Assembly: GCA_964549075.1 (NCBI GenBank) | Contig: CAZJUB010000015.1 | Span: forward strand, 24,687 to 47,423 | Source: an uncultured archaeon | Lineage (GTDB): Archaea > Asgardarchaeota > Heimdallarchaeia > Heimdallarchaeales > Heimdallarchaeaceae | Length of the DNA stretch: 22,737 bases | Direction of reading: 5' to 3' | Position numbers and translations under genes: made by a program | In this document: positions 1,304 to 19,987 of the stretch, piece after piece | Numbering within the stretch: position 1 is the stretch's first letter | Layout of the letters: the number at the start of each line of letters is the position of its first letter | Notes under the pieces: model-generated | Database searches by the model: none | What the model was told of the DNA's origin: nothing | What the model saw: only the letters and a program-made list of their open reading frames with translations

Positions 1304-4027
1304 TCAGGTTTCGAGTTCTTTACAAAGACTTGTTGCCTGTTTTTTCTTCTTTATTAGTTCATTGTAGAAATTCTCATATTTCTTTATAAAAATCTTAATT
1401 GCTTTATCATATGTTGAAATAGATAATTTGCAATTTTCCTCGTTTTTATCAACTTCAGCAATAATTCTGTAAGTGTCAGCTAAAATCGATGTGGTCACAG
1501 CATATTCAAATGGAAATTGTGCTTGATTTCTAACTGTTAATGAATCATTAAGAGCTACAATAGCTTGATTACAATTTGCTAGCTTCTTTTCATTACTACT
1601 AAGCTCAGCTAATATAGAGTAGGATAAACCAATATTATTGTAAATCATTGATTTTTCAGTTAATATTAAATCTAAAGAACCAGCTCTTAAAGCTCCATTA
1701 AAAGAATCAATTGCAAAGGTTGCATACATTTCTGATTCAGTAGTAAGAGCAAGATTCAAATATGCTATCCCCTGATTTACCATTGTAATAGCATATTCAA
1801 AAGGAGAATTTATCAGATCTCTACTTTTTAATGCTTCTTGGAATGCAAGAATTGTCATTTTTATATTAAGTTCTTTTTCTTCTAATTCTGATAAAGTATA
1901 GTACGCTAATCCAAGGTTATAATTTACTTGTCCATATTCATATTTAAATAACGAACTAGAATATATTTTCAATGCATCTTGATAGGATGAAATCGCATAT
2001 TTACAGTTGTTTGCCTTAGCTTCGATTTCAGATAAAGAAAGATAGAAATTACCTAAATCATTTTTTATTTGCGCAAATTGAAGTGGAAAACTTAATATCG
2101 TATATTTTTTCAGTGCACTTCTATAAGCTTTAACTGCAATTTTAATAAACTGCTTTTTCCATTTTTTAACATCAGAATCAGAAATAAAAGAATTAACATT
2201 CCAGAAGTGGGAAGAATACATACTATCAATATTAGCAATAAAGTAAGCAGCATCTCCAATATCCACAAGAACATCTGGAACATTTCTGAATATTTGTATC
2301 AAATCTGTAAAAAGTTGTGGGATATCAGGAGGGACATTAGCTCCAAAACCTAAAGCTTCTCTTAAGAAATACTTTTCTGATGGTAGTTCATAATTATCTA
2401 ACAGAAGAAGTTTGTCATTTTTCAAAGCTCCTAACCATTCTTTCCACAGATACCAACTACCTGAGAGAGATTCTGTTTTATATTCTGACTTAATAGACCA
2501 ATCTTTCGGAATTTCCTCTTTTTCTTGATTTTTCTGACTTGGTTCTAACATCTCTTTAAGCATTTGTTCTTCAGCTGAATAATCTTCAATTTTTGGTTCG
2601 ATTATTTTATCACCTATCTTTTGAATTAAGACTCCTCTCTTTTTCATAGCATGTGCAGCTACAAGCTGATAATGTCCTCCATAAACAACAAAATCTAATA
2701 TTTCGTGTATTCTTTCATCAGCTTTTCCATATAAACTTCGAATATCTTTTACAGAAGAGTTCCTTGCATAAGCTATATCAGCATATGTTAGATCTATTTC
2801 TTCTTTCAAATGCCAAACGTACCAATGTTCATCTTTAAGTAATAACGGATAAGGATTTTTTATTCTTATATAGCCAAATTTTAAAAGAAAACGGTATGCT
2901 TGACCAAATTGTACTAAATCACCACCTGCTATAAGATTATCTACAGAAATTGGATCATTTTCATCTAATAACTCAATTCTGTTAAAAAGAGTTCGTGAGT
3001 TTATTGTTATTTGTAGTAAGGGGGTTTTTTCATTTTGTAGGATATGATTTAATAAGTAATTGAAATCCTGCTTATCAACTGCAAATTCTTTGATATGATT
3101 TAGGTCTCTAATCTTAAAAATATCAACGTCACCTGGTATTGGTAATAATTCACGTTTGATTTTTTCTCCTTCTTCTTTAATTGATTCTCCTAATGAAAAA
3201 GAAGTCATACTTCTGACATCTGAAGGTACAGATTCAAGTTGAGCACGTGAATCTTTATAAGATGTTCTAAGTTGTTTTGTCGATAACTGAGGTCTTTTTA
3301 CTTCTTCTGAAATTGGTTTTAATTCAGATCTATGGTCTTTCACTTTAACTTTCATATCTTGTTTTTGTAATGTGTGTCGTTTTTCTTCTTCAGAGACCTT
3401 TTTTAATCCTGCTTTTACATCTTTAATTTCAGTTTGTAAATCTTTTTTCTGCAATACATGTTTTTTCTTTGAATCAGCTACACTAACTAAATCTGCTTTT
3501 GCATCCTTTATTGCTAATTCCAAATCTTTTTTTGAAAAGGAATGTGTCTTATCTTCATCGTGTACTGATTCTAGACTCGAAATTGCATTTAGAATAGCTG
3601 ATTTTAGATTTTCATTAGTCTGGTCTTCTTTCTTATCACTTTTTGGTGTTTTTACTAATTGTTCTTTCGCTTCTAAAATATCATTTTGTAAAGATGGTTT
3701 TTTCGATAGAAGAGATTTTTCTTCTAATGTAGCCGAAGTCAAATTTTCTAAAACATCACGAATTGTAGATTCTAAATCATTTTTTGTTGTATTTTTCTTT
3801 TTTTCTTCTTGTGATACAGGTTCTAATCTTAAAATAGCTTCTTGGATTGCACTTTGAAGACTTTTTTGTGTTTCTATGTCACCTTTTGATTTATCTGTTC
3901 CTCTTTTTTCTATAGGATTTTTCTTTTTATTTTTTAATTCTTCTTTTGAGTTTTGAATAATTGCTGCAGTAGGAGACTTTTTAGTTGAACTTGTTTTAGA
4001 TTTTGTTTTCTTTTTCTTCTTTGACAT
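1304..4027 (-). CDS. Large multidomain protein: Lys-rich N-terminus, 8 x 28-aa WH2/beta-thymosin-like repeats, sigma70-r4-like HTH, C-terminal TPR array
   Basis: Start moved to ATG 4027 (GGTGA-gaat-ATG). TPR units of the type AxxAYxxALxxxTxxxFPxxYAxxxxNLGxxYxxL lie at about 1307-2150, the HTH-like segment LTYADIAYARNSSVKDIRSLYGKADERI at about 2696-2842, and the repeats at 3188-3859. Confidence 0.88.
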   Translation of the reverse strand: MSKKKKKTKSKTSSTKKSPTAAIIQNSKEELKNKKKNPIEKRGTDKSKGDIETQKSLQSAIQEAILRLEPVSQEEKKKNTTKNDLESTIRDVLENLTSATLEEKSLLSKKPSLQNDILEAKEQLVKTPKSDKKEDQTNENLKSAILNAISSLESVHDEDKTHSFSKKDLELAIKDAKADLVSVADSKKKHVLQKKDLQTEIKDVKAGLKKVSEEEKRHTLQKQDMKVKVKDHRSELKPISEEVKRPQLSTKQLRTSYKDSRAQLESVPSDVRSMTSFSLGESIKEEGEKIKRELLPIPGDVDIFKIRDLNHIKEFAVDKQDFNYLLNHILQNEKTPLLQITINSRTLFNRIELLDENDPISVDNLIAGGDLVQFGQAYRFLLKFGYIRIKNPYPLLLKDEHWYVWHLKEEIDLTYADIAYARNSSVKDIRSLYGKADERIHEILDFVVYGGHYQLVAAHAMKKRGVLIQKIGDKIIEPKIEDYSAEEQMLKEMLEPSQKNQEKEEIPKDWSIKSEYKTESLSGSWYLWKEWLGALKNDKLLLLDNYELPSEKYFLREALGFGANVPPDIPQLFTDLIQIFRNVPDVLVDIGDAAYFIANIDSMYSSHFWNVNSFISDSDVKKWKKQFIKIAVKAYRSALKKYTILSFPLQFAQIKNDLGNFYLSLSEIEAKANNCKYAISSYQDALKIYSSSLFKYEYGQVNYNLGLAYYTLSELEEKELNIKMTILAFQEALKSRDLINSPFEYAITMVNQGIAYLNLALTTESEMYATFAIDSFNGALRAGSLDLILTEKSMIYNNIGLSYSILAELSSNEKKLANCNQAIVALNDSLTVRNQAQFPFEYAVTTSILADTYRIIAEVDKNEENCKLSISTYDKAIKIFIKKYENFYNELIKKKKQATSLCKELET
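3188..3859 (-). repeat. Eight tandem degenerate 28-aa (84-bp) protein repeats, consensus L-x3-I-x6-L-x2-V-x3-(E/D)-K
   Basis: Repeats start at track-ORF residues L76, L104, L132, L160, L188, L216, M244 and L272. The period is exactly 28 residues, with Leu at +11 and Lys/Arg at +19 in all eight. Confidence 0.9.
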
Positions 4028-4209
4028 ATTCTCACCTTGTGGAGTATTACTTGAACTTGAACTACCTCGTTTTAGAATAATCAATAAAATAGTGATTTTT
4101 ATTTTTAATATGATTTTGAAAATAAAAGGTCAAAATATAGAAAAAAATAGAAAGACAAAGTGTAAATATTTAATTTTGAAAGATATTTTTTAACATGTTT
4201 GATCAATAT

Positions 4210-5172
4210 CTACAAAGAAATTTCACTTACTTCTCTATACTCATCTTTCGGAATTTCAAATGTTTTAATTATAAATTTGATTAATTCATCTTTTGAACTT
4301 GATCTTCTTTCTTCCAGATGCTCAAAAATAAGATCAATAAGTCGCTGAGCATTTTTGTGGGAGGTATTTATTTCAGTTATTAAAGATATTACAATCTCCC
4401 CTCTCTCCTGAAACACTATTTGTCCATAGTTTGATACTATACTTGCGATTCTTTCCTCTCTAAGTGAGTTTTCTTCTTTTTCTAATACATTAGATAACAT
4501 GGTTATTATTATGTCAATATTCTCAGTTACATCAGAAAAATCAAGAAACAATTTAATATTTCCAAATGTATTTGAAATTATCAGACCTTTAGGAATGAGC
4601 AATTTATCAATAGTAATTTCCTGAATTTTCTTAGAAAACCAGTCCATTGCTTCAGGTAAGTTAAAATTTGTTTTAACACTTATTTTGAATATCTGAAAGC
4701 TAATTTTTGGATATTTACTCATTCTTTGTAATTCAAGTGATTGGATTATATCTTCAAGAGTCATGCAATCTAAATCTGCTTTGTTTGCGAGAAATGCTAC
4801 TACTATCTTGTTTTCTATTTCTAAATTATCTATCAAATACCAAAACCATTCCTTACCTTCTTTTATTCTTTCTTGATTTGAAGCATCAAATATAAAAAGA
4901 ACGCCATAGCTATTAGAAGCATAGTTTATCCAAAACTGTCGCCTTAAAACTTCATGACCTCCTAAATCAAAAAGTTTCAAACGAGTATCTCCAATCCTAT
5001 AGGTTTCGAAGTTAATACCCAAAGTAGGAACAGTATTATCAATCCATTCTCCAGTTGCAAGTCTTAAAGCTAAACTAGTTTTTCCTGCTTCATTTAATCC
5101 AATAAGAGTAACTGGTATTCCTTTTATTCCAGCATCTAAATTTACTTTGTTGTTAGTTTTGTTTATAGTCAT
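4210..5172 (-). CDS. Arf/Sar1-like small GTPase with C-terminal longin/roadblock-like domain (paralog 1)
   Basis: G1 GLNEAGKT, G2 PTLG, G3 DLGGH, G4 NKAD, G5 SVK, followed by an alpha/beta tail of about 135 aa. Confidence 0.92.
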   Translation of the reverse strand: MTINKTNNKVNLDAGIKGIPVTLIGLNEAGKTSLALRLATGEWIDNTVPTLGINFETYRIGDTRLKLFDLGGHEVLRRQFWINYASNSYGVLFIFDASNQERIKEGKEWFWYLIDNLEIENKIVVAFLANKADLDCMTLEDIIQSLELQRMSKYPKISFQIFKISVKTNFNLPEAMDWFSKKIQEITIDKLLIPKGLIISNTFGNIKLFLDFSDVTENIDIIITMLSNVLEKEENSLREERIASIVSNYGQIVFQERGEIVISLITEINTSHKNAQRLIDLIFEHLEERRSSSKDELIKFIIKTFEIPKDEYREVSEISL

Positions 5173-5201: not shown

Positions 5202-6533
5202 TTAATCTATAAATACAATCTCCCTGAATTTTGTTAAGTCATTCTTATCCATTCTATTAGGATATTCGTAATCTTGAATTAAATCTAAAAATCTTTTTTC
5301 TATTTTCTTGTTTGAAACAAGAAATTCTGTTTTATCTTTTGGAAAAATAACAGCAAGCAGATAATATTGATTCCTGTCCATTCTAGAATCAATTTCTGCA
5401 TCATCTCGACCAGTAAATGCAAAAATAATAGCATTAAAATTCTTCAATTTTGGAGCTGGAATTGGACCATATACTCCCTTTGCATGTCTATTTCCTTGTC
5501 CTATACTTGTATAGAATACTGTTGAAAAGTATTCGGGATATATCTTAAAATTCCTTAAATCTTCTATTACAATTTCTCCTCCAAGAGATGCAAAACGAAA
5601 TAATACAACTCCTACACTATCATCATTTGCTATTGTTCTTCTTATATTTACTATTTTTTCCTTCTGCTTTATATTATAACTATCATCAGTAAGGGTAATT
5701 ATGTGTGTAATTTCATCATCTTCTGTTACTTGTACAATAGAAACTAGACAAGGGAATTCAAAGTTATCTTTCCGTCTGATATTAAAGATTCTACCTTCTA
5801 TTGGTCGATTTTCAAAGATTACAAAAGTAAAATCTGGGAAAATATGGTTTATTATAATATCAGATTCATGAAGTTCAGCTAAAGAGTATCCTGTCATCAT
5901 TTCAAACATTTGATTTGCAAATTGGATCTTTCCTTTTGAATTAACTGAAGCAATACCTGAGGGATTACAATTCAAAATTCTAGTAGTTTCTTTGTTATTA
6001 AATTCTAATTGTTCAAATAAAATTGCGTTTCTAATCGATAGCACTATAACAGCATTTATTTTTTCTATATTTTTCTTAATTTTCTTCAATTCAATAATAG
6101 AATTTCCTAACGGTATTTCAATTATGTAACCATATAATTTTGAAATTTTGAAAGGAAAATAGAAAGTAAGAATATTTTTCCTTTGAAAAATGGATCTTTT
6201 TCTAATACAAGGTTTTGTTATATTTCTCAACCTTTGAATTAATTTTTCTAGTACAATAATTTTTGTTTTTATTTCTTCTTCTAGCCAAAAAGATTGGATA
6301 ATATCATTATTGTAATCAAAAAAATAGAAACTCAGTTTCTGATTTTTGTAGATTTTATATAAATTAGCTAGAATAATTTTAACAATATCAGAAAGAGATA
6401 ATTTTTCTCGTAGTTCTTGTGCAAGATTTATAGTTGTATTTAAGAAATAATTCTCTTCATATAAGTTATCATCATTTTTTATATTTTCCTTCATTTTAAT
6501 CAATTGATTTGAAAAGTTTTTTATGTTTCCCAA
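5202..6533 (-). CDS. Sensor protein: GAF-like N-terminal region, PAS domain, uncharacterised C-terminal alpha/beta domain
   Basis: The ...SIRNAILFEQL helix is typical of a GAF end. PAS reads ILNCNPSGIASVNSKGKIQFANQMFEMMTGYSLAEL...RRKDNFEFPCLVSI. The start is either TTG 6533 (overlapping the upstream GTPase stop) or ATG 6494. Confidence 0.85.
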   Translation of the reverse strand: MGNIKNFSNQLIKMKENIKNDDNLYEENYFLNTTINLAQELREKLSLSDIVKIILANLYKIYKNQKLSFYFFDYNNDIIQSFWLEEEIKTKIIVLEKLIQRLRNITKPCIRKRSIFQRKNILTFYFPFKISKLYGYIIEIPLGNSIIELKKIKKNIEKINAVIVLSIRNAILFEQLEFNNKETTRILNCNPSGIASVNSKGKIQFANQMFEMMTGYSLAELHESDIIINHIFPDFTFVIFENRPIEGRIFNIRRKDNFEFPCLVSIVQVTEDDEITHIITLTDDSYNIKQKEKIVNIRRTIANDDSVGVVLFRFASLGGEIVIEDLRNFKIYPEYFSTVFYTSIGQGNRHAKGVYGPIPAPKLKNFNAIIFAFTGRDDAEIDSRMDRNQYYLLAVIFPKDKTEFLVSNKKIEKRFLDLIQDYEYPNRMDKNDLTKFREIVFID

Positions 6534-7420
6534 ACAATATCTTTAACTTGATTAAGGAGAAATTCTTTATCTACCTTTAAATCATGATTAATTCGAGAGA
6601 GAGAGTTAAAAAACAAAGACAAACCTATTTCTCTTGCCAAACTATGTGGATCATCTTTATCAACATATATTACAGCTCTATAATCGCCTTTTTTTAGGAT
6701 ATGTGCTGTATATCCCTCAATATTAATATGAGGTAAAGAATCAATCATCTTTAAAGAGTGTGTTCGGAAAATTCCCATAATTTTCTCTATGTCTTTTTCA
6801 TTTTCTTCAGAAGCTAGATTTTCACGAATTATAGATTCTATCCTATCATCATAAATTTCAAAACCATGTACGTGAACGAATTTCTTTGAATCAATTCGAT
6901 TTCTGATAGATTTAGCTAACCAATTCCAACAATCTTCAATATTTTCTCCAGTTTTACTGGATGTTTCAAAGATTCTGAAGCTTTTCAGTGGAGATTCACT
7001 AAATTTAGATAGCTCTAAACCTTCTATTATATCGTCTAATGACATTGAAGGGAGTATATCAGATTTATTAGCAAAAAAGGCAAAGTTTGCATCTTTGGGT
7101 ACCCATTTTTCAACTTTCCATAACCATTCTTTTGCCAAATTGATTCTTTTTGCATCAGATCTATCAAATATAAAGATACATCCATGGCATGAAGTAACAA
7201 AGTTTTCCCAAAAAGTTGTTCGAAAAGCTTCATGTCCTCCTAAATCCACAATGTCAAAACGAAAATCATCTCGTTCTAAAAATGAAAGATCATATCCTAT
7301 TGTTGGATGAAAATCTGGTTTAAACTCACCTGTTTTCAACCTATGAATGAATGTTGTTTTTCCTGCATTATCTAATCCTGTTATTGCTATTAATGGATTT
7401 ATCTTTCTTTTTATACTCAT
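6521..7420 (-). CDS. Arf/Sar1-like small GTPase with C-terminal longin/roadblock-like domain (paralog 2)
   Basis: G1 GLDNAGKT (canonical Arf type), PTIG, DLGGH, NKSD, SSK. RBS GGTGA-tagt-ATG. Confidence 0.93.
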   Translation of the reverse strand: MSIKRKINPLIAITGLDNAGKTTFIHRLKTGEFKPDFHPTIGYDLSFLERDDFRFDIVDLGGHEAFRTTFWENFVTSCHGCIFIFDRSDAKRINLAKEWLWKVEKWVPKDANFAFFANKSDILPSMSLDDIIEGLELSKFSESPLKSFRIFETSSKTGENIEDCWNWLAKSIRNRIDSKKFVHVHGFEIYDDRIESIIRENLASEENEKDIEKIMGIFRTHSLKMIDSLPHINIEGYTAHILKKGDYRAVIYVDKDDPHSLAREIGLSLFFNSLSRINHDLKVDKEFLLNQVKDIVWET

Positions 7421-7799: not shown

Positions 7800-10766
7800 A
7801 TGAGTCTTGCTTATTTAAGTCAAAAAGAATTGATAGATATTGCTAATCTAGTTTATCTTTCATTAGATACAGACTTTAATATTGAAATGATTAATCAGAA
7901 GGGTTGCGATTTATTTGGATTTACTGAAGATGAGATAATCGGAAAAAATTGGTTTGATACTTTTTTTCAGAAAAAAACAGCAAAAGAGCTCAAACAGAAG
8001 TACAGAAAGTTAATCAATGTAAAAGAAAAGCAAGAAACTCTAAGAGTAGATCAAATTTATACAAAGTCAAGAGAGTTAAAAACAATCTCTTGGAAATGCA
8101 GAACTATCCAAAACGAAAATGGAGACGTTATAGGATTATATAGTTCAGTTGATGATACTACTAAACAGGTTACTTTAGAAAAAATCATCAAACAAACTGA
8201 AGAAAAGTACAATACTTTATTCGAAATTTCTGGAACAGCAATAGGGATAGCTAATCTACAAGGATTTTACACCTTAGTAAATTCGAATTTTGAAAAAATC
8301 ACCGGTTTTGAAAAAAATGAAATTATAGATAAGAAACATTGGAAAGAATTTATTCCAAAGAGTGAATATTCATGTTTAGAAGAAATAAAAGATGTTATTA
8401 ATAAAGATGAAGATTATTCTGCTCAATATGAATCTAAAATAATAACAAAAAGCAGTGAAATAAGAAATGTAATCATAAATATTGAATATATTTCCAAACA
8501 GCGAGAAATTATTACTGTTTTTTCAGATATAACTGAATTAAAGAAAAAAGAACAATTAGCTAGAGAGAGTGAAGAAAAGTATAAGAAATTAGTTGAAGTA
8601 ATACCAGAAGCAATTATTCTAAGTGATCTAGAAGGGGAGATATTATATGCAAATAATAATGCAGCAAAGATTTTCAGCTTTAACAGATTAGTTGACTTTG
8701 AAAGATTAAATATTAAATATCTCTTCCATGAAAATTCAATAAACAAGTATGAAAAAAATTTAGCTGATATTCTGCATGAAAATGAAATAGATTATACTGA
8801 ATACCAAATGATAAGGAAAAATGGAATAAAGTTTCCTTTAGAAGTAAAGCTGAAGCTTATTACAGATATAAATAATACACCTATAGCTATTATGACTATT
8901 GGAAGAGATTTAACAGAAGAAAAGAAACTTGAGCAAGAATTAAAAGAAAAAGAAAGATTGTCTAATAATATTCTGGACAATTCATTTCAATTAACATGGT
9001 TATTACTTCCTCAAGGTAATATAATTAATGTAAATAAAACTGCACTTGATTTTGTTAATGTTAAAGAAGAAGATGTAATAGGTGTTCCAATCTGGGAAAC
9101 TTCTTGGTGGTCAAGTTCTGTACATGAACAAGACAAAATGATGGAAGCAGTTGATAAAGCTGCAAAGGGTAATATAGTAAAAGATGAGTTGTTAATTATT
9201 GATAAAGAAGACAACATAAGAACCATATCCTTTTCACTTAAACCTTTACATAATCAAGAGGGAAAAATAACATATTTAATCTCAGAGGGACAAGATATAA
9301 CTGAAAAGAAAATTGCAGAAAATAACTTAAAGGCATCTGAAGTTCTATATAAAACTCTATTTGAAAATACAGGAACAGGCGTATTTCTCGCTGATGATGA
9401 CTATACTATTTTATTGTGTAATAATAGTTTTGAGAAGATGTGTGGATATTCTGAGAAAGAACTTCAAGGAAAAGTAAAATTAATGCAATTAATAAAAGAA
9501 GAAGAACAAGTAGAATTCTTTGAAATACTGAATAATCGTTCTACTAAAAAATGTCCAGCTATTAACTATGAAACTATTATGAAAACGAGAGATGGGGAAC
9601 TAATACATGTTTTAATTTCCATTTGTGAGATTCCAAAAACAAAACAAACAATTGTATCTGTTTTAGACATAACCGAAAGAAAACTCTTGGAAGGTAAACA
9701 AAAACGAAGTGAAAATAAATTAAAATATTTAGTAGAAAATATGCCTATAGCAATTTCAATCTTATCTCAAAGTTTTGGCATAGTTTCTGTAAATTCTGCA
9801 TATTGGAAATTGTTTGGATATAACTCGAAGAATGAATATTTAGTGAGTGACAATAATGATTTTTGGATTGATACAAATAGAAAAAACAAATTGTTTGAAA
9901 TGATACAAGAAAAGAATTTCATTAGGAATTTTGAAACAAAATTACAAAAAAAAGATAAATCAAGTTTTTGGGCATCAATTTCGTTAATTAGTTTTAAAGA
10001 TATTATAGGTGAGATTTCTTATTTTCAAATAATCGAGGATATTTCAACCAAAAAGAAGTTAGAAGAAAAACTCATCTACAACAAATTAGACTATAAGATA
10101 GAAGAAGCACATATCTATATGATAGAAGAGGAAAGAGCTTTTCATTCTAAAGAAATATTTGAAGATTTATTAAAGGTCGGTTATAACGGCATTTATTTTT
10201 CAAGAGAAATAGAAAAACAACTGAGAAACGACCTTAATAAGAATTGTATCTACTATAAATTTTCAGAAAAAGGAAGTGGTAATATTGTACCACCAAACCT
10301 TAAGAAAATAGAACAAATAATAGAAAAACTTCCAAATAGATGTGTTGTTTTTATTGATAGATTAGATTATTTAATTCAAAAAAATGGCTTTGAATCTACT
10401 TTATTCTTCATTTATAAGCTAATGGATATTGTTTTTCTAAACAACAACATAATACTTGTTTCTGTTGATACTACTACTATGAATCCACAAGAAAAGAAGT
10501 TGCTTGAAAAAGAGCTAAAACAACTCAATAACCATAAAGAAGAACTTCTTCCAGAAGAGCATTATCAACTATTAAAATTCATTTATCAGACTAATATAAC
10601 AGGCTCAAAGCCGACTATATCTGATATAATAACGAAACTTAAAATTAGTCGTCCAACAGCAAGAAAGAGAATAGTCCAATTAATGAATAAAGATTTCATA
10701 GTAGAAAAAACCAGTGGTAGAAGTAAGCTTATTGAGATTACACCAAAAGGTAAATCAGTTTTTTAA
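7800..10766 (+). CDS. One-component regulator: six PAS domains, DUF835 (inactivated KaiC/RecA-like) domain, C-terminal winged HTH
   Basis: Six PAS/PAC units end in DDTT, DITE, DLTE, DITE, DITE and DIST. DUF835-like VVFIDRLDYLIQKNGFESTLFFIYKLMD...LLEKEL lies at about 10090-10530. The wHTH reads PTISDIITKLKISRPTARKRIVQL...GRSKLIEITPKG. Upstream GGAGG. Confidence 0.9.
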   Translation: MSLAYLSQKELIDIANLVYLSLDTDFNIEMINQKGCDLFGFTEDEIIGKNWFDTFFQKKTAKELKQKYRKLINVKEKQETLRVDQIYTKSRELKTISWKCRTIQNENGDVIGLYSSVDDTTKQVTLEKIIKQTEEKYNTLFEISGTAIGIANLQGFYTLVNSNFEKITGFEKNEIIDKKHWKEFIPKSEYSCLEEIKDVINKDEDYSAQYESKIITKSSEIRNVIINIEYISKQREIITVFSDITELKKKEQLARESEEKYKKLVEVIPEAIILSDLEGEILYANNNAAKIFSFNRLVDFERLNIKYLFHENSINKYEKNLADILHENEIDYTEYQMIRKNGIKFPLEVKLKLITDINNTPIAIMTIGRDLTEEKKLEQELKEKERLSNNILDNSFQLTWLLLPQGNIINVNKTALDFVNVKEEDVIGVPIWETSWWSSSVHEQDKMMEAVDKAAKGNIVKDELLIIDKEDNIRTISFSLKPLHNQEGKITYLISEGQDITEKKIAENNLKASEVLYKTLFENTGTGVFLADDDYTILLCNNSFEKMCGYSEKELQGKVKLMQLIKEEEQVEFFEILNNRSTKKCPAINYETIMKTRDGELIHVLISICEIPKTKQTIVSVLDITERKLLEGKQKRSENKLKYLVENMPIAISILSQSFGIVSVNSAYWKLFGYNSKNEYLVSDNNDFWIDTNRKNKLFEMIQEKNFIRNFETKLQKKDKSSFWASISLISFKDIIGEISYFQIIEDISTKKKLEEKLIYNKLDYKIEEAHIYMIEEERAFHSKEIFEDLLKVGYNGIYFSREIEKQLRNDLNKNCIYYKFSEKGSGNIVPPNLKKIEQIIEKLPNRCVVFIDRLDYLIQKNGFESTLFFIYKLMDIVFLNNNIILVSVDTTTMNPQEKKLLEKELKQLNNHKEELLPEEHYQLLKFIYQTNITGSKPTISDIITKLKISRPTARKRIVQLMNKDFIVEKTSGRSKLIEITPKGKSVF

Positions 10767-11620: not shown

Positions 11621-12559
11621 ATGACATTAACAAAATATTTATCGTTTGATAAAAGTGGGATTCCTATTACAATTGTAGGATTACCTCAAGCAGGTAAAAC
11701 AACATTCGTAAATAGAATGAAGACAGGAACATTTACAATTCCAAATCCAACAACAGGTATGCATTTCGAGAGAATAAACATTCAAGATATTCATTTTGAT
11801 ATATTTGATTTAGGAGGACATGAAATTTATCGTAAAACAATTTGGGAAAGTTATATAAAATTAAGTTATGGAATTATTTTTATCATCGATTCTGCTAACG
11901 AAAGCATCCTAGAAGAAGTAAAGAAAGAATTTTGGAGATGCATAAGTATCAAAGAAAAAGATGAAGAATTTCTTTTGCTCTTTTTGTGTAATAAATCAGA
12001 TCTTGAAAAAAGTATGAATTTGGAAATTTTGGTGAAGAAACTGGAATTATATAAATTAGCACAAATACCAAATTTAACTTATCAATTTTTCAAAGTAAGT
12101 ATGAAAACTGGAGAACACTATGAGTATATCATGAATTGGTTGCACAATAAAACAGAGAAAATAACTTCAAAAAGGAAAATTACTCCATTAATGATTCTCA
12201 TAGCTCAAAAAAGTGGATTATTTATATTAAGCATAGATAAACTAGAGAACAAACAAGATCCGAATCTTGTTTCAGGATTTCTTTCTGCTGTTGAAGGATT
12301 TACAAGAGAAGTGTTTAGAAATGAAGGTTTTTTACAATTTATATTAGAAGAAAATCACAAATATATCATTTCAGCTAAAGAAGAAAACATCTATGCGATA
12401 TTGATTGATAGAGATGATTCACAAGAAGAAGCAAGAAGAATTATAGAAATTATTGATAAATATTACGAGAAAACTAAGAATTACGAATCTTTAGAACAAT
12501 ATATACTACAGATTTTTAGACTAGATATTAAATATTACAACATATCTAGAGCATATTAA
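11621..12559 (+). CDS. Arf/Sar1-like small GTPase with C-terminal longin/roadblock-like domain (paralog 3)
   Basis: GLPQAGKT, PTTG, DLGGH, NKSD, SMK. The tail has MILIAQKSGLFILS...DPNLVSGFLSAVEGFTREVF, a typical longin/roadblock-type helix. GGAG RBS. Confidence 0.93.
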   Translation: MTLTKYLSFDKSGIPITIVGLPQAGKTTFVNRMKTGTFTIPNPTTGMHFERINIQDIHFDIFDLGGHEIYRKTIWESYIKLSYGIIFIIDSANESILEEVKKEFWRCISIKEKDEEFLLLFLCNKSDLEKSMNLEILVKKLELYKLAQIPNLTYQFFKVSMKTGEHYEYIMNWLHNKTEKITSKRKITPLMILIAQKSGLFILSIDKLENKQDPNLVSGFLSAVEGFTREVFRNEGFLQFILEENHKYIISAKEENIYAILIDRDDSQEEARRIIEIIDKYYEKTKNYESLEQYILQIFRLDIKYYNISRAY

Positions 12560-12650: not shown

Positions 12651-12726
12651 AAGTAAAAAGATTCAATTCAATTTCAACAAGATAATTTAGTTTGATTTAT
12701 TCAAACAAATATTTAGTGGTGGGTTG

Positions 12727-13644
12727 ATGAATAAAAAGGGAAGTCCAATAAATGTTGTGATACTTGGTTTAGAAAATGCAGGAAAAACTACTCTCTTGAA
12801 TCATATAGCAGGTTATGAATTCACTGAAACACTAACTACAATAGGAGTCAATGTAGAATTAATTAACTATAGAGGAGTAAATTTCCAAGCGATAGATATT
12901 GGAGGTCAGCTGATTTTTCGAGAGAACTTATGGGGTCATTATGCTACTTTAGCAAAAGGAGTCATCTTTATTTTCGATATTTTTGAAAAAAGTAAGATTA
13001 ATGAAGCAAAGATATGGTTTGAGTATATTCAGAATTGGATCGCTGAGGATGCTAAGCTGATTTTTATTGCTAATAAAATAGATCTAAAAGAAGATAATGA
13101 TAGTTTTTTATCACTTGAAGAGATAATACAAGCTTTTCAATTAGAGAAATTAGCAAAATTTCCTAAAAGAAGTTTTAGAATCTTCGAAGTATCAGCTAAA
13201 ACTGGTAAAAATGTTAAAAATGCGATTACTTGGTTTTTTGAAAAAATCCTTGATAATATTAAAACTGAAAAAAATGTTTCATTTATATATGTATTAGATA
13301 ATGAAAATAATCTTGTTTATTGTAATAATTTAGTTGAAAATGATGAAGTTAATGAAGATTCGCAATTAATCTTTGAAACAATTAAAAATATGAAAGAAAT
13401 GAAAATTAAGCAAAATCTTTTATCTACCAACAATCAAATAATCAATATTGTCGTTGAGAAGAATTTTAGTGTGGTTATTGGGTCTAAGCAAGATATTTCT
13501 AAATATGAATTGACTACAGCTACAAACTCAATTTCAGCAATGATAAAAACTCACTATTTACCAATAAACAAACACGTAGAGGAATTACATGATGTAGTGA
13601 ATACCGCATTTATGAGAAGTTTAACAGAAAAACAAGGTGAATAA
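12727..13644 (+). CDS. Arf-like small GTPase with C-terminal longin/roadblock-like domain (paralog 4)
   Basis: GLENAGKT, TTIG, DIGGQ (the only paralog with the Arf-type Gln), NKID, SAK. Upstream GGTGGG; TTG 12724 is an alternative start. Confidence 0.93.
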   Translation: MNKKGSPINVVILGLENAGKTTLLNHIAGYEFTETLTTIGVNVELINYRGVNFQAIDIGGQLIFRENLWGHYATLAKGVIFIFDIFEKSKINEAKIWFEYIQNWIAEDAKLIFIANKIDLKEDNDSFLSLEEIIQAFQLEKLAKFPKRSFRIFEVSAKTGKNVKNAITWFFEKILDNIKTEKNVSFIYVLDNENNLVYCNNLVENDEVNEDSQLIFETIKNMKEMKIKQNLLSTNNQIINIVVEKNFSVVIGSKQDISKYELTTATNSISAMIKTHYLPINKHVEELHDVVNTAFMRSLTEKQGE

Positions 13645-14604
13645 ATGGTTAGAACTACTATTGCTATTACAGGTCTTCAAAATGCTGGAAAAACATCCTT
13701 CTCTCAAAGATTAGTCTCTGGAGCATATATATTGTCTCAACCAACATATGGTGTAGATGTAGAATTTACACAATATAGAGGAGTACCAATACAAATTTGG
13801 GATATGGGGGGTCATGCTTCATTTAGAAAACATATCTGGCAGAATTATGTAGAACAATCCTCAGCATTAATTTTCATTTTTGATGCAAGTGATTTAAGTA
13901 AAATGGAGGAAAGTGCTGAATGGTTTTGGAACAGTTATGCTTGGATAGCAGAGAAACAAATCCCAATTTTATTTCTAGCAAATAAGTGGGACTTAGTAAA
14001 GGAAACAGAAGAAACAATAGACAAAATAGTATCAGGATTTAATTTGAAAAAAATATCAGAAAAAGCTTTAGAAACACCTTTTAGATTCTTTTTTGTTTCA
14101 GTAAAAACTGGAGCATTTATATCAGAAGCTATGAATTGGTTAATTGGAAAGAGTTTAAATCAATCTAAAGATCAAAAACGAGAAGTTATTTCATTTGATT
14201 TATTCATAAAAATTGATAATTATATAGCTCACTTGCATGATAACACAGATAAAAGAAATATGGTTGCAAAACTTATAAACACCTATAAAGAAAAATGGTC
14301 TTCTACAATGGATTCACTTATTGATGTTTTGGAGGAAATTGTTTTTGAAAAATATAGGGTTTTGTTTATTTCTTATAAAAATAAAGCAATTGTAATTTCA
14401 TCAAAAAGAGAATTTCTAGATCAATCTGTTTTTAAAAACCTAGTACAGGATATTTCTCTTTCTAAATTCAATGATAACATAAATGGTTTTTATAATCTTT
14501 TTGAAGAAACAAAATCTGAATTAGAAAAATACTTTCAGGTAGAGATTGCATCATCATTAAGTTGTGATGTCTCAGATGTAACAACTAGTCAATTTACCAA
14601 TTAG
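13645..14604 (+). CDS. Arf/Sar1-like small GTPase with divergent C-terminal domain (paralog 5)
   Basis: GLQNAGKT, PTYG, DMGGH, NKWD, SVK. The ATG directly abuts the paralog 4 stop, with a GGTGA-ataa-ATG RBS, consistent with translational coupling. Confidence 0.92.
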   Translation: MVRTTIAITGLQNAGKTSFSQRLVSGAYILSQPTYGVDVEFTQYRGVPIQIWDMGGHASFRKHIWQNYVEQSSALIFIFDASDLSKMEESAEWFWNSYAWIAEKQIPILFLANKWDLVKETEETIDKIVSGFNLKKISEKALETPFRFFFVSVKTGAFISEAMNWLIGKSLNQSKDQKREVISFDLFIKIDNYIAHLHDNTDKRNMVAKLINTYKEKWSSTMDSLIDVLEEIVFEKYRVLFISYKNKAIVISSKREFLDQSVFKNLVQDISLSKFNDNINGFYNLFEETKSELEKYFQVEIASSLSCDVSDVTTSQFTN

Positions 14605-15413: not shown

Positions 15414-17477
15414 TTACCTTGAATTCTTCTTTTTAAATCGATTATATACTAAAGTGACTAACAACATCAGTGGAATAAGAAGTAAGCTAAGAACTGGAAT
15501 AAATTCTGAGATTACTGGGTTTACTGTAACAACTACTGTATCCTCTGCAGTGTTTCCTGCAAGATCTTCAACGACAATTCTGAATGAGTATATATCTACA
15601 GATAAACCATCAACATCTACTACGATTGGATTATTTGAGTCCCAGTAACCTGAGGTATAGACGGTTTCCGGACCACCGCTTGGATTAATGTAAACCGTGT
15701 AAACGTGTGGATTCATATCCGTAGCTGACCAATCTATGGTGTTACCAGTCGCTCCTACTATGTAGTCGAAGTTTGCAACGCCTACTACATCGGGATTGAT
15801 GAAATCAATAGTGGTCTCGATAATATTAAGCTTGATCTGACCAGGTAGTATTAAGTAATAGATAAGATTTGAACTTTTCTCAACATATAAGACAGAGTTA
15901 GGATAAGCGAAGTAGGTTAAAGTCCAAACTTCAGTATATTCCCAGGACTTGCTACCATTAATAGTCATCATATCGAACCAATAAACCCAATTTGCATTAT
16001 CACCAATTATAGGATTAGGAACGAGGTTAGCAAAAGCGAAGAATTTCTGATAGAGAAACATCGAAGTTGGGTCGACAGAAACATAACCGTTGAGAACATT
16101 TATCACTATATAATAATTCATTTCTCCTGTAGTCCCAGTTTCGTCGTAAGAACGAAGGCTTACAAGGGTATTCATTTCAAATGGTGATAACCACTCAACA
16201 AAAGTAAAATTATATTCAGCTCCTTCAGTGGTAGATAAGGATAGATATTCCATATTTAAGATATCTCCTTCCTTAAGATTTACAATAGGTATCACATTTA
16301 CTGAGTTTATTTCTACTGAGTCATTTGATACTGACAAATCATAAAAGTGTCCTTCAATATAAATAGTATTTGTACCATTTTCAAACACAGGAACGAAAAA
16401 TTCGTCAATATACGGGTAGTTAAATGTCGTAATAAATACATCATTTACATATATGTCTATGTAATCAAGTTCATAAGAATCCGAGACATCAATTTGACAT
16501 AATACAGATCCTCCTTCTACTGTAGCATAAGGCATTGGAGATTCTATACTCAAAGTATAGACAACTGGATCAAGATATAGTTCAATAATTACACCTTCTC
16601 CATCATAGTTAATTACTGCTGTAGTTTCATTCCAATAATATTTATCAGCTGAAGCCTCAATAATATAATTTCCTGGACCTAAGTTACTACAATTAAATAA
16701 ACCATTGATATCAACATAACCATCAATGATGAAGTAATAGTATTCTGTGTAAAAGGTCACCCATGCACTTTGAATAGGATTTAGAGTCAAACTGTCATAA
16801 ACATATACTTCTAAATAACCTAGCCCTGGGGTGTACTTTGGTGCTAAAAGTATTTCTAGATATACTCCTTCGCCGTCATAAGTGATATGTGGATATGATT
16901 CATTATACCTATAATTTTCAGCGTCGACAAAAATCCAGTATTGACCAACACCTAAACCTGTAAAGTTATAGAAACCATTTACATCAGTAAGTCCAGAATC
17001 TATGTATATACCACTATCACCTGTATAAAGACCAACGTTTGCATTTGGTATTGCAGAAAAATTCCCTGCATCAAGAACGTATAATTCAAAATATCCATTT
17101 CCCGGAGTATAGGGGATAGGGAGATAAAATTCAACTACCTTTTTTTCACCTTCATAATCAATTGTAAGAAAAGAGTCGTTAAATGCATATCCTTGAGCAT
17201 ATACCTGAATAATATAGTCACCTGTTGCTAAGTCTGTAAAATTACAAAAACCACTAGTATCTGTATTAATACTAGCTATCAAAATATAATCATAATCATA
17301 GAGGTCAATGCTGGCATCATAAATGGGCGATAAAGATTCAGCTTCGTAAACGTAGACTTCGATAAAAGCAGTATCCTGAGCGGTTACGGTTAAATAAGTT
17401 GAAAATAGAGGAGTAAAAATTCCAAATAACAAGACAAAGAAAACTAAACCAAAGCAGGTTTTATTCTTTTTGTTCAT
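15414..17477 (-). CDS. Membrane-anchored cell-surface protein with three carboxypeptidase-regulatory/prealbumin-like beta-sandwich repeats and Ig-like domains
   Basis: Start ATG 17477 (GGTGA-aaaa-ATG). Signal peptide MNKKNKTCFGLVFFVLLFG. Three repeats of about 92 aa (EVYVY..P I..A...D.NG..NF..L..G.Y.I...A..Y...I.Y.GE). Ig-like end FRIVVEDLAGNTAEDTVVVTV. C-terminal ISEF, TM helix and basic tail. Confidence 0.88.
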   Translation of the reverse strand: MNKKNKTCFGLVFFVLLFGIFTPLFSTYLTVTAQDTAFIEVYVYEAESLSPIYDASIDLYDYDYILIASINTDTSGFCNFTDLATGDYIIQVYAQGYAFNDSFLTIDYEGEKKVVEFYLPIPYTPGNGYFELYVLDAGNFSAIPNANVGLYTGDSGIYIDSGLTDVNGFYNFTGLGVGQYWIFVDAENYRYNESYPHITYDGEGVYLEILLAPKYTPGLGYLEVYVYDSLTLNPIQSAWVTFYTEYYYFIIDGYVDINGLFNCSNLGPGNYIIEASADKYYWNETTAVINYDGEGVIIELYLDPVVYTLSIESPMPYATVEGGSVLCQIDVSDSYELDYIDIYVNDVFITTFNYPYIDEFFVPVFENGTNTIYIEGHFYDLSVSNDSVEINSVNVIPIVNLKEGDILNMEYLSLSTTEGAEYNFTFVEWLSPFEMNTLVSLRSYDETGTTGEMNYYIVINVLNGYVSVDPTSMFLYQKFFAFANLVPNPIIGDNANWVYWFDMMTINGSKSWEYTEVWTLTYFAYPNSVLYVEKSSNLIYYLILPGQIKLNIIETTIDFINPDVVGVANFDYIVGATGNTIDWSATDMNPHVYTVYINPSGGPETVYTSGYWDSNNPIVVDVDGLSVDIYSFRIVVEDLAGNTAEDTVVVTVNPVISEFIPVLSLLLIPLMLLVTLVYNRFKKKNSR

Positions 17478-17808
17478 TTTTTCACCTACATATTTTATAA
17501 GCTTAAACAATTAGCTTATCAATAAAAATTTTTAACAAATTTTATAAATGTTTTCCATTATTTGAATATATAATATGTTCATCTATTATTTTAAAAAAAA
17601 AGAAAAAAGAAGAAAGAAAAATTTTAGAATCTTATTTTACTTTTTTTCTTAGTATAATTATTGGTACTGCTAGAAGAAATATTAGAGGTAAAAACAGATT
17701 ATTACTAAATTCCATAATCGAGGGTTAATCTGAAATAACATTAAAAAATCAAATTTAAATATAACATAAAATATAATTAGCAGTAATTAAAATATAAAGG
17801 GTATATCT

Positions 17809-18762
17809 GTGAATAGTGAAGAATATGCAATTGTTATTGAAAATTTAGTCAAAAAGTATGGTGATTTATTAGCTGTAAATAATATTTCATTTAAAATTCG
17901 AAAAGGAGAAATCTTTGCATTTTTAGGACCTAACGGGGCAGGAAAAACCACAACAGTAGAAATACTTGAAGGAATTAGGAAAAAAACAAGTGGAAAAGCT
18001 TACGTTTTAGGGAAGGATATTGATAAGAAGAAGGAATTGGATAGTTTAAAGAAAATTATAGGTACTCTCCCTCAAGAATTTAATACGCACGAAAATTTGA
18101 CTGTAAAAGAGAATCTTAGATTTTGGAGTAAAATGTATGAAAAATCACTTTCTATCGATTATTTAATTGACTTGGTTAAACTTACAGATAAAACCAAAGA
18201 AAGGTATAAGAATCTTTCTGGTGGATTAAAAAGAAGGCTAGGAATAGCTATTTCACTTGTAAATGATCCAGAATTGATTTTTTTGGATGAGCCTACTACT
18301 GGTTTAGATCCTAGAGCACGAAGAGAAACTTGGGAAGTGATTGAGGATTTAAAGGAACAAGGAAAAACGGTTTTCTTAACTACTCATTATATGGAAGAAG
18401 CTCAAGTTTTAGCAGATGAAGTAGCTATAATTCACAAAGGAGAAATAATAGATATTGGGACTCCTACTCAACTGATTGATAAATACGGAGGAGACAATAA
18501 AATCATTGTTAGATGCAATAGTGATGAAGTACGACAACAAATTTACAGTATTCTTTTTGAGTTAGGACCTGCAGAAAATGAGGATAAAGACATAGTTGTT
18601 TCAGCAAAGCGAGGAGGTTTATCTAAAGTTGTTGATCTTTTAGAAGACAACAAAATTCCTTATACTGATATAATTTCTCAAAGACCGACTCTTGAAGATG
18701 TATTTTTGTCATTAACTGGCGAAGTATTGATAGATAAGAAAGCAGTAAAAACTGCTACATAG
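17809..18762 (+). CDS. ABC-2 type exporter ATP-binding subunit (DrrA/NodI-like)
   Basis: Walker A GPNGAGKT, signature LSGG, Walker B IFLDEPTTGLD, TTHYMEEA, C-terminal PTLEDVFL. GTG start. Confidence 0.96.
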   Translation: MNSEEYAIVIENLVKKYGDLLAVNNISFKIRKGEIFAFLGPNGAGKTTTVEILEGIRKKTSGKAYVLGKDIDKKKELDSLKKIIGTLPQEFNTHENLTVKENLRFWSKMYEKSLSIDYLIDLVKLTDKTKERYKNLSGGLKRRLGIAISLVNDPELIFLDEPTTGLDPRARRETWEVIEDLKEQGKTVFLTTHYMEEAQVLADEVAIIHKGEIIDIGTPTQLIDKYGGDNKIIVRCNSDEVRQQIYSILFELGPAENEDKDIVVSAKRGGLSKVVDLLEDNKIPYTDIISQRPTLEDVFLSLTGEVLIDKKAVKTAT

Positions 18763-18773
18763 GAAGTGCTAAG

Positions 18774-19985
18774 ATGGTAAAAGGTAAATCTATTTTTTCA
18801 AAAATAAGATTCAGTTTTCGAAAAATCTTTGGGTTTACTAGTACTACTGCATTAAGTTGGATAAAAACAGGACCTGCACTATTCTTTACTTTCATCTACC
18901 CTATTATCATGATACTATTGTTTGGATATATTTTTAGTGCTGGAGGAGATGAAAATCTCTATAATCTCGCTTATATGAATAATGATACTTATCAAGTAGG
19001 AGATCAATATTATAGTTATACTCCAGCTTCAATTCTATTACAAAGGCTCGGTTATCAAAATAGTACTCTTGCAGAAGAATTGAATCTAAATTTACAAGAG
19101 GTATATTATAATTCTTCACAAACAACTGCTATGGATTGGATGAAGGATAATGATATACCTTATTTACTTGTCATTCCAGAAGGTTGGTCTGCTACATTAA
19201 ATGAATCAATTACTAATAGTTCAGCGCCAATAGCAAATATCTATTACTACTATGATCCATCTTATACTAGTTCAATGGAAGTAAGAAGTATTATAGACAA
19301 TGTTCTACAAAAGATGAATATTGAGGAATTTGGTATACAATCGTTTATACAAATCGAAACAAAAACCACTCCAAGTCGTGAAGGTTTAAACTATATTGAT
19401 TTCTATGTTCCAGGAATTATTATGGTCACAATTTCAACTTCTGGAATGATGGGATTAGTTAGTACGGTCACAGAAGAAAGAAAAACAGGATTGATCTATA
19501 AAATATCTTCTACTCCTTTGAAGAAATGGGAATGGAGCTTGTCTCAATTATTATGGCAAGCAATATTAGGCATCATTGTTGCGATATTGACAGTATTAAC
19601 TGGGTGGGTTGCATTTGGTTTTAACTTAAAATCCATCCATCCTTTGATGATTGTTGCATTAATATTTGGTTCAATGACTTTTGCAGGATTGGCTTTAATT
19701 CTTGCGTTTTTTGTTAGGAGAACTGAAGCTGCAATGGCAGTAACAATGGCTTTTGTTTTTCCTCAAATGTTCTTATCAGGAGCTATTTTCCCAGCTGAGA
19801 TGTTACCTAGTTATATGCAGACTATAGCAAAAATCTTTCCACTATACTATATGGGAGAAGCAATGAGAAACATGATGTTAGCATCAACTTTTCATAAAGT
19901 ATGGCTAAATTTGGGTATAACAATAGCAATGGGAGTGGTTTTCTTTGTTATAGGTTCAATAATTACAAAATGGAGGAAAGAATAA
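18774..19985 (+). CDS. ABC-2 type permease
   Basis: N-terminal TM (FFTFIYPIIMILLFG), an extracellular loop, YIDFYVPGI, ERKTG, five further TMs and FLSGAIFP. Confidence 0.93.
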   Translation: MVKGKSIFSKIRFSFRKIFGFTSTTALSWIKTGPALFFTFIYPIIMILLFGYIFSAGGDENLYNLAYMNNDTYQVGDQYYSYTPASILLQRLGYQNSTLAEELNLNLQEVYYNSSQTTAMDWMKDNDIPYLLVIPEGWSATLNESITNSSAPIANIYYYYDPSYTSSMEVRSIIDNVLQKMNIEEFGIQSFIQIETKTTPSREGLNYIDFYVPGIIMVTISTSGMMGLVSTVTEERKTGLIYKISSTPLKKWEWSLSQLLWQAILGIIVAILTVLTGWVAFGFNLKSIHPLMIVALIFGSMTFAGLALILAFFVRRTEAAMAVTMAFVFPQMFLSGAIFPAEMLPSYMQTIAKIFPLYYMGEAMRNMMLASTFHKVWLNLGITIAMGVVFFVIGSIITKWRKE

Positions 19986-19987
19986 TT

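Follow-up and report, generated by a model that had tools for sequence, protein, structure and literature searches.

What kind of protein would join an array of short repeats, a sigma-factor-like helix-turn-helix (HTH) and a tetratricopeptide repeat (TPR) solenoid in one archaeal polypeptide? The question is raised by a gene in a 22,737-nucleotide stretch of DNA (the window; contig CAZJUB010000015.1, positions 24,687 to 47,423) from an uncultured member of the Heimdallarchaeaceae, in which an earlier note, made from the letters of the sequence, had seen a WH2-like array and had speculated about a link between the state of actin and DNA. The repeat–HTH–TPR protein encoded there is a genuine, conserved and unusual architecture that is narrowly distributed in archaea. 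It may be a Heimdallarchaeaceae-specific scaffold or regulator acting with an upstream module of Arf-like GTPases and a PAS sensor, a reading for and against which we find the balance about even.

The coordinates and strand given for the gene in the earlier note are correct according to the list of open reading frames (ORFs), the translation, and the alignment of ortholog starts; the containing ORF covers 1304-4084 (minus strand), and the N-termini of the orthologs line up with its ATG at 4027. The 907-residue product consists, in this order, of a lysine-rich tail, eight 28-residue repeats, an alpha/beta domain, the HTH, a conserved region, and six TPR hairpins, which are located as follows.

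1304..4027, minus strand: coding sequence of the repeat–HTH–TPR protein, 907 residues plus stop, ATG at 4027 (ORF list and translation)
3869..4027, minus strand: lysine-rich basic tail, residues 1-53 (predicted disordered)
3197..3868, minus strand: eight 28-residue repeats, residues 54-277 (28-residue period and unit profile)
3365..3448, minus strand: the LKKV-bearing unit, residues 194-221, the most WH2-like (regular-expression scan)
2858..3139, minus strand: small alpha/beta domain, residues 297-390 (predicted model)
2681..2857, minus strand: sigma-70 region-4-like HTH, residues 391-449 (structural and profile matches)
2168..2680, minus strand: conserved region, residues 450-620 (many invariant alignment columns)
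1307..2167, minus strand: TPR solenoid of 12 helices forming 6 hairpins, residues 621-907 (model confidence, Foldseek, and TPR_12)

The very basic character that the earlier note had ascribed to the N-terminus is real: the tail contains 18 Lys/Arg against 6 Asp/Glu within residues 1-53 (pI 10.3), and shows a predicted local distance difference test score (pLDDT) of <50 in the full-length AlphaFold2 model. The array that follows is composed of units starting at residues 54, 82, 110, 138, 166, 194, 222, and 250, with a period of exactly 28 residues. A hidden Markov model (HMM) built from these eight units gave unit E-values of 1e-9 to 1e-13 within the window protein, and found 8-9 units in each of eight distinct orthologous loci (most at E 1e-4 to 1e-11, a few weaker), so that the tandem array is real and well beyond chance. 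DNA-level tandem-repeat detection on the array returned nothing, from which we take the array to be old and diverged. The eight loci hold 64 units, 54 of which were aligned after ten near-duplicates from two loci had been left out, and the core motif reads K-x-D-L-x-x-x-I-x-D-[AV]-x-x-x-L-x-[PK]-[VIL]. Among the 54 units, K1 is kept in 45, D3 in 39, L4 in 51, I8 in 46, and L15 in 53; position 10 is Asp in 36 and Glu in 11 more, position 17 is Pro in 26 and Lys in 16, and position 18 is Val, Ile, or Leu in 49. This pattern of conservation indicates that the repeats are under residue-specific constraint, and the arrays of the orthologs differ by insertion or deletion of whole 28-residue units. 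In the full-length model, each unit comprises a helix of 10-20 residues and, after it, a stretch without helical structure, both at low confidence.

The array was not found elsewhere in the same genome, and residues 50-280 gave no usable match in the ESM Atlas. In a collection of 5.8 billion proteins, searches of which scored only the 8000 candidates sharing most words, matches to the array were confined to the repeat–HTH–TPR family, as all 19 longer proteins and both shorter ones proved to be members or fragments. Weak matches of the array to SMC (E 5e-4), ERM_helical (best E 8.6e-4), FIVAR, and ThiD2, all far below the respective cut-offs, were rejected as compositional.

For the central part of the protein, the fragment of residues 278-570 was folded with 9 sequences, giving a model that is confident only for residues 298-443 (pLDDT 83-93). 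Residues 297-390 are modelled as a domain with the succession beta-alpha-alpha-beta-beta-beta-alpha, at a pLDDT of 83-93 in the model of the fragment and of 72-86 in that of the whole protein; the stand-alone proteins described below contain this domain as well. The three helices of the HTH have pLDDT values of 88-92 in the fragment model. A VIA-align comparison with 48,161 chains matched model residues 114-172, corresponding to residues 391-449 of the protein, with the best match to SigR region 4 (5fgm_A; Z-score, 9.4; root-mean-squared deviation (rmsd), 2.2 Å over 59 residues) and further matches to 1rp3_A (Z-score, 9.2) and 2h27_D (Z-score, 8.1), each over the entire region-4 domain; sigma region 4, LuxR-type or other HTH regulators accounted for all 15 matches at Z≥8 and for the majority of the top 30. 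Foldseek found no match of the fragment model at E≤0.001 and listed the same families, including 5fgm (probability, 1.00; rmsd, 1.1 Å over 53 columns; E 0.28).

The sequence comparisons point in the same direction. A profile of residues 278-570, searched against 1.84 billion representatives, retrieved six proteins, three of them family members and three small stand-alone proteins of 175-238 residues, to which the alpha/beta–HTH module is homologous as judged from an alignment of the two. With the same profile, PDB sequences were reached at chance level only (E 0.67). A profile of residues 297-450 including the small proteins gave seven PDB sequences at E≤10, six of which are extracytoplasmic function (ECF) sigma factors, aligned in register with region 4 (E 0.011-0.24) along L-[ST]-Y-x-[DE]-I-A ... 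[ST]-V-R. Pfam Sigma70_r4 and Sigma70_r4_2 (PF04545 and PF08281) gave no match at E≤10 on the window protein, the HTH fragment of which matched only HTH_Tnp_ISL3 (E 0.031). The stand-alone relatives also gave sub-threshold sigma70-ECF matches; P0024 matched Sigma70_r4_2 (E 0.0032; 17.5 bits against a cut-off of 25.7), and P0025 matched Sigma70_r4 (E 0.013, below the cut-off). Because these individually marginal lines of evidence, namely the predicted fold and the in-register profile matches, agree with each other, we accept the assignment made in the earlier note: the central segment, including the stretch quoted there at nucleotides 2696-2842 (residues 396-444), is predicted to fold as a sigma-70 region-4-type HTH.

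The protein has no Sigma70_r2 match, and its upstream domain is alpha/beta and not of the helical region-2 fold; without sigma region 2, it is therefore not a sigma factor. The net charge of the HTH is -5 in the window protein and ranges from -1 to -6 in the large family, and that of the recognition helix is -2 to +1 in six large-family members compared with +3 to +5 in four stand-alone relatives. Since the HTH is acidic, unlike those of its basic stand-alone relatives, DNA binding by the large protein, as the earlier note had proposed, is doubtful. The stand-alone proteins with an alpha/beta domain and a sigma-4-like HTH (175-238 residues; P0023, P0024, P0025, and one encoded at 1447-1974 on the plus strand of locus L023, G010:C1, in the same genus) are likely to be DNA-binding regulators, and probably the source of the module in the large protein. 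A HigB_toxin match (E 0.0052, residues 408-472; 3 of 18 members) lies below the cut-off and overlaps the confidently modelled HTH helices, and was rejected. The region downstream of the HTH (residues 450-620) has many invariant columns in the family alignments and pLDDT mostly of 31-66 in both models; it gave no family match in Pfam or in the profile search of the PDB, and an ESM Atlas query with residues 296-620 returned no usable match.

Compared with region 4 of bacterial sigma-70/ECF factors and the related LuxR/GerE-type HTHs, the module has the same predicted fold (Z-scores of 8-9.4; rmsd of ~2 Å over 55-59 residues) and an in-register sequence, whereas it occurs in an archaeal host without the other sigma domains, is preceded by an alpha/beta domain, is net acidic, and stays below the Pfam cut-offs, even in the stand-alone relatives. 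The succession of an HTH and a long TPR solenoid in one chain, which would bind a peptide or protein signal, is shared with the RRNPP/ComR/AimR-type peptide sensors and with ECF42. However, in RRNPP proteins an XRE-type HTH stands right at the N-terminus and leads directly into a TPR peptide-binding domain, and a repeat array is not known from them, while the HTH of the present protein is preceded by ~390 residues; ECF42 proteins are sigma factors with a C-terminal TPR extension that possess sigma region 2, which the repeat–HTH–TPR protein does not. No sequence relationship to RRNPP or ECF42 turned up in the Pfam, PDB, and representative searches, none of which was RRNPP-specific.

The C-terminal part forms twelve confident helices (residues 619-906; pLDDT mostly 81-95) arranged as six hairpins in the full-length model. 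Foldseek gave 39 PDB matches for this part at E≤0.001 with a probability of 1.00, led by OGT, SPY (SPINDLY), LGN/Pins, and designed consensus TPRs, and the matches shown also include HAT/TPR-like helical-repeat proteins; LGN/Pins TPR-peptide complexes are among them (4g2v_A, TMt 0.64; 3ro2_A, TMt 0.62). TPR_12 (PF13424) is matched at E≤0.01 by 16 of 18 aligned family members (best, 6.4e-9), and by the window protein itself at E 0.028 and 15 bits, below the cut-off of 30.1. The TPRs named in the earlier note are therefore supported by family and fold. In four consecutive TPRs, the N-L-G-x-x-Y positions show little or no variation (N656, N704, N751, and N798).

A search for relatives of the whole protein gave 20 homologs at E≤1e-217, all from Heimdallarchaeota/Heimdallarchaeaceae where the source is named, and about 20 orthologs were found at 46-80% identity. 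The earlier note had named TPR-only homologs as an outcome that would speak against its proposal; of 17 aligned homologs, 15 have the three modules in unchanged order and two are truncated. A match at E≤0.001 was obtained in 21 of 83 genomes of the class, and matches that reach beyond the C-terminal TPR part are confined to one taxonomic family, in which ten genomes of genus g1 (G000 and 9 of 24 others) and both genomes of genus g5 have them, counts that are descriptive only, as the genomes are close relatives and 64-99% complete. In one genome of g5 (G007; locus L068, G007:C1, 7609-8952, 9212-10723, and 10884-11963), the ortholog is split into ORFs of 448 and 360 residues by a 504-residue insert with a Cas12f1-like TNB domain and a weak OrfB_IS605 match, which identify a TnpB-type element. 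In a genome of genus g2 (G002; locus L070, G002:C36, ~8850-9260, minus strand), a frameshifted N-terminal remnant encodes the tail and about three units and then runs into stops; it sits between an Arf-like gene and a PAS ortholog, beside an intact GTPase cluster. The gene is dispensable in several lineages. The genome with the remnant also encodes a 592-residue paralog (locus L071, G002:C22, 4039-5814, plus strand) that shares only the part corresponding to residues 550-845, the end of the linker and the TPRs (27% identity; E 1e-27), and differs in its N-terminal half. A description of the repeat–HTH–TPR family was not found in the accessible text of the literature searched on Asgard actin/WH2 and on Asgard Arf GTPases, the supplementary tables of the latter being places where these GTPases may be listed.

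The window is AT-rich (25-35% G+C), and contains five Arf-family GTPase genes, genes for PAS and receiver domains, and an ABC transporter. Three genes precede that of the repeat–HTH–TPR protein (the target).

4210..5172, minus strand: Arf-family GTPase of 320 residues with a C-terminal extension of ~130 residues (Pfam Arf, E 1.9e-30), upstream and co-directional
5202..6533, minus strand: PAS-domain protein of 443 residues (Pfam PAS_9, E 9.8e-07), upstream and co-directional
6521..7420, minus strand: second Arf-family GTPase of 299 residues (Pfam Arf, E 1.1e-29), overlapping the PAS gene by 13 nucleotides

In all four g1 loci examined, the target follows, on the same strand, orthologs of the GTPase at 4210-5172 (65-68% identity) and of the PAS protein; the second Arf-like GTPase and a divergently transcribed multi-PAS/DUF835 gene are present in the three g1 loci whose contigs reach them. 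The coordinates in two further g1 genomes (G015 and G024) fit this arrangement, as the target and the PAS ortholog lie on the same strand, separated by ~1.1 kb, with room for one gene. The target occurs in each of the eight g1 genomes that have a full-length PAS ortholog, and most g1 genomes have neither. The association of the target with the cluster is old, being found in g1 and g2, but not obligatory. Conserved gene order backs a link with the neighbouring GTPases; that the TPRs may bind them, as the earlier note had suggested, is proposed from synteny.

Further genes of the window accompany this cluster. The five Arf-family GTPase genes lie within 10.4 kb (4210-5172 and 6521-7420 on the minus strand; 11621-12559, 12724-13644, and 13645-14604 on the plus strand), encode 299-320 residues, and each have a C-terminal extension of ~130 residues for which Pfam gave nothing; in genus g2 (L070), the orthologs of the five likewise lie together in a cluster. 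At 7800-10766 (plus strand), a 988-residue protein with six PAS stretches and DUF835 is encoded divergently from the GTPase–PAS–GTPase–target cluster. Farther along, a gene at 15414-17510 (minus strand) encodes a probable surface protein of 698 residues, which has CarboxypepD_reg, SdrD_B, SpaA, and PKD-like domains, and is adjoined by a three-gene ABC-2 transporter operon (17809-21244, plus strand).

Taken as a scaffold or regulator that acts with the GTPase–PAS module, the protein might operate as follows. The TPR solenoid would offer a surface for binding peptides or proteins. Each of the eight repeats would form a short amphipathic helix with an extended L-x-P/K-V stretch behind it, and together they could be multivalent docking motifs that engage the GTPases, another partner, or the TPR groove of the protein itself, the last of these leading to autoinhibition or self-association. 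The HTH module would derive from a small DNA-binding regulator, with a recognition helix that has lost most of its basic charge, and may either bind DNA weakly, helped by the basic tail, or have become a module for protein contacts. The output would be an assembly dependent on the state of the GTPases, possibly coupled to gene regulation. Several points weigh against this proposal. The putative link with the GTPases is drawn from gene order; small GTPase genes are very numerous, five of them in the window, so that adjacency weighs less; and the related genomes are not independent samples. Moreover, both genomes of g5 (G006 and G007) have different neighbours, with no PAS ortholog at E≤1e-20, and g2 and g3 contain the cluster without an intact target; the partnership is therefore not obligatory. 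The acidic HTH weakens the part of the proposal that concerns regulation of transcription, and an enzymatic or ligand-binding role could be hidden in the alpha/beta domain or in residues 450-620.

As for actin, the WH2-like label of the earlier note was not confirmed. Pfam WH2 (PF02205; cut-off, 23.1 bits) gave no match at E≤10 on the whole protein, on six repeat arrays, on six single LKKV-type units, or on the LKKV unit of residues 194-221 scanned alone, under HMMER filters that drop most matches above an E-value of ~0.1, and a thymosin profile gave no match at E≤10 either. Repeat profiles built from 54 units and from 13 LKKV-type units, searched against 177,635 distinct PDB sequences, reached no WH2 or thymosin chain at E≤10; the actin half of the earlier idea thus finds no support in these searches. 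A six-frame search of the genome with Pfam WH2 gave a single match (13.2 bits; E 0.35), located in the gene of an unrelated helical protein. This long protein (locus L069, G000:C11, 796-3075, minus strand; an open frame of 1262 residues, 759 of them in the locus), which holds the chance-level match, also has a sub-threshold match to apolipoprotein A1/A4/E. What is left is a resemblance of motif, carried by one LKKV-bearing unit out of eight. The pattern L-[KR]-[KR]-[VT] is present in one of the eight window units and in 5 of 54 aligned units, L-[KR]-[KR]-[VTIL] in 9 of 54 (one in the window), and L-x-P-[VIL] in 25 of 54, proline being the commonest residue at the third position of the LKKV motif. 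A strict regular expression, written from WH2 features, fits 1 of 8 window units and occurs 81 times in the 954,798 residues of the long ORFs of the genome, which encode a lysine-rich proteome, so that a single occurrence carries little weight. Being short, WH2 motifs are notoriously difficult to detect, and the negative profile results therefore lower the probability of a WH2 array far more than that of a protein that could bind actin.

Three other explanations have to be weighed against a scaffold of the GTPase–PAS module. If these were divergent WH2/beta-thymosin motifs binding actin monomers, the protein would couple the actin pool or filaments to DNA via the HTH, or to GTPase signalling, which we regard as very unlikely. 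A unit does consist of a short predicted helix and an extended stretch opening with an invariant leucine, with a hydrophobic spacing that resembles that of beta-thymosin, in addition to the minority of L-[KR]-[KR]-[VTIL] units; the profiles, however, give the comparison no support, and the genome's one WH2 match falls in another gene. Pro and Lys share the third position of the motif (26 and 16 of 54 units), and the conserved D3 and D10 are not known to be features of WH2 domains. Together with the frequency of the strict motif in the proteome, the restriction of the array to a single architecture, with none, for example, that includes gelsolin or profilin, also argues against it. In comparison with tandem WH2/beta-thymosin proteins (Spire, Cobl, VopL/VopF, and ciboulot), the array would share tandem amphipathic helices with leucine-initiated extended segments, predicted here at low confidence, along with a minority of LKKV units, and differs in the absence of profile similarity, in the predominance of L-x-P-V units and conserved aspartates, and in a rigid 28-residue period with conserved K-K-H-x-L linkers. 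On the other side stands the conserved actin encoded in the genome, which scores 448 bits against Pfam Actin and is 71-100% identical to its full-length matches in the class. A second gene of the actin family, divergent from the first (Pfam Actin, 191 bits; locus L002, G000:C10:26700-27932), is present as well, and several genomes of the same genus have a second actin paralog that is 82-85% identical to the main actin. LKKT-like motifs contacting actin are documented in Asgard gelsolins in the accessible text of one report (PMC9433394), and these WH2-like motifs are described there and in a second source, as far as its accessible text goes, only as the inter-domain linker of two-domain gelsolins, the 2DGel linker with which the present units share the above likeness (PMC9433394; bioRxiv 10.1101/2025.11.30.690169). 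Profilin and gelsolin are the Asgard actin regulators known so far, according to the accessible part of a further source (PMC12050087), and no title seen in the literature on the WH2 domain, archaea, and nucleators points to an archaeal tandem WH2 array. That the 28-residue units are very divergent archaeal motifs of the WH2/beta-thymosin type, and thereby the first array known to bind actin monomers in tandem other than in eukaryotes and their pathogens, must be called a long shot; if true, Heimdallarchaeal actin would be connected by the protein with an Arf-like GTPase switch and a sigma-4-like HTH, and an activity like that of a nucleator or sequestrator, controlled by GTPases, would be older than eukaryotes. 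Nothing that was observed requires a link to actin for its explanation.

The repeats could alternatively be ligands of the TPR groove of the protein itself, within one molecule or between molecules, giving an autoinhibited or self-assembling protein that would be relieved by GTPase binding, by analogy with LGN/Pins, whose TPRs hold tandem GoLoco motifs until G-alpha binds; we consider this rather unlikely. The likeness lies in the fold match, which includes the LGN/Pins TPR-peptide complexes 4g2v_A and 3ro2_A, in the combination of TPRs and tandem short motifs in one chain, and in the association with a GTPase of the Arf/G-alpha superfamily, which here is one of gene order with the adjacent GTPase genes. 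The (near-)invariant N-L-G-x-x-Y positions of four consecutive TPRs speak for this arrangement, although the asparagine belongs to the generic TPR consensus, and array and TPRs always occur together, the array in this family only. However, with respect to the architecture of LGN/Pins, the domain order is reversed, no GoLoco or other known motif was detected in the repeats, and an alpha/beta–HTH module is added, so that the analogy is one of logic only. A further alternative, which appears distinctly unlikely, is that the N-terminal half is a flexible charged spacer, or an amphipathic region binding membranes or nucleic acids without a specific partner, attached to an HTH–TPR core that is an ordinary transcription regulator. 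Low pLDDT across most of residues 1-277, the weak coiled-coil matches of compositional origin noted above (ERM_helical and SMC), the variation in unit number by whole units, and the basic tail would all suit a spacer. Yet almost every unit retains the same specific positions, and the units of orthologs stay in register across genera at an overall identity of 46-58%, which exceeds the constraint on a spacer, and the HTH is acidic.

We therefore return to the protein as a candidate partner of the GTPase–PAS module, for which the link with the GTPases is the best lead. Heimdallarchaeia, which have many small GTPases, count among the archaea known to be most closely related to eukaryotes. Should the repeats bind actin, GTPase signalling would be tied to the actin cytoskeleton in a prokaryote, which the present evidence does not favour. 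The family nevertheless joins protein-binding modules, the TPRs and a multivalent array, with a module from a putative DNA-binding regulator, in which a sigma-region-4-type HTH would be reused in an archaeon, and it stands as a candidate effector or scaffold encoded beside two Arf-like GTPase genes and a PAS sensor gene.

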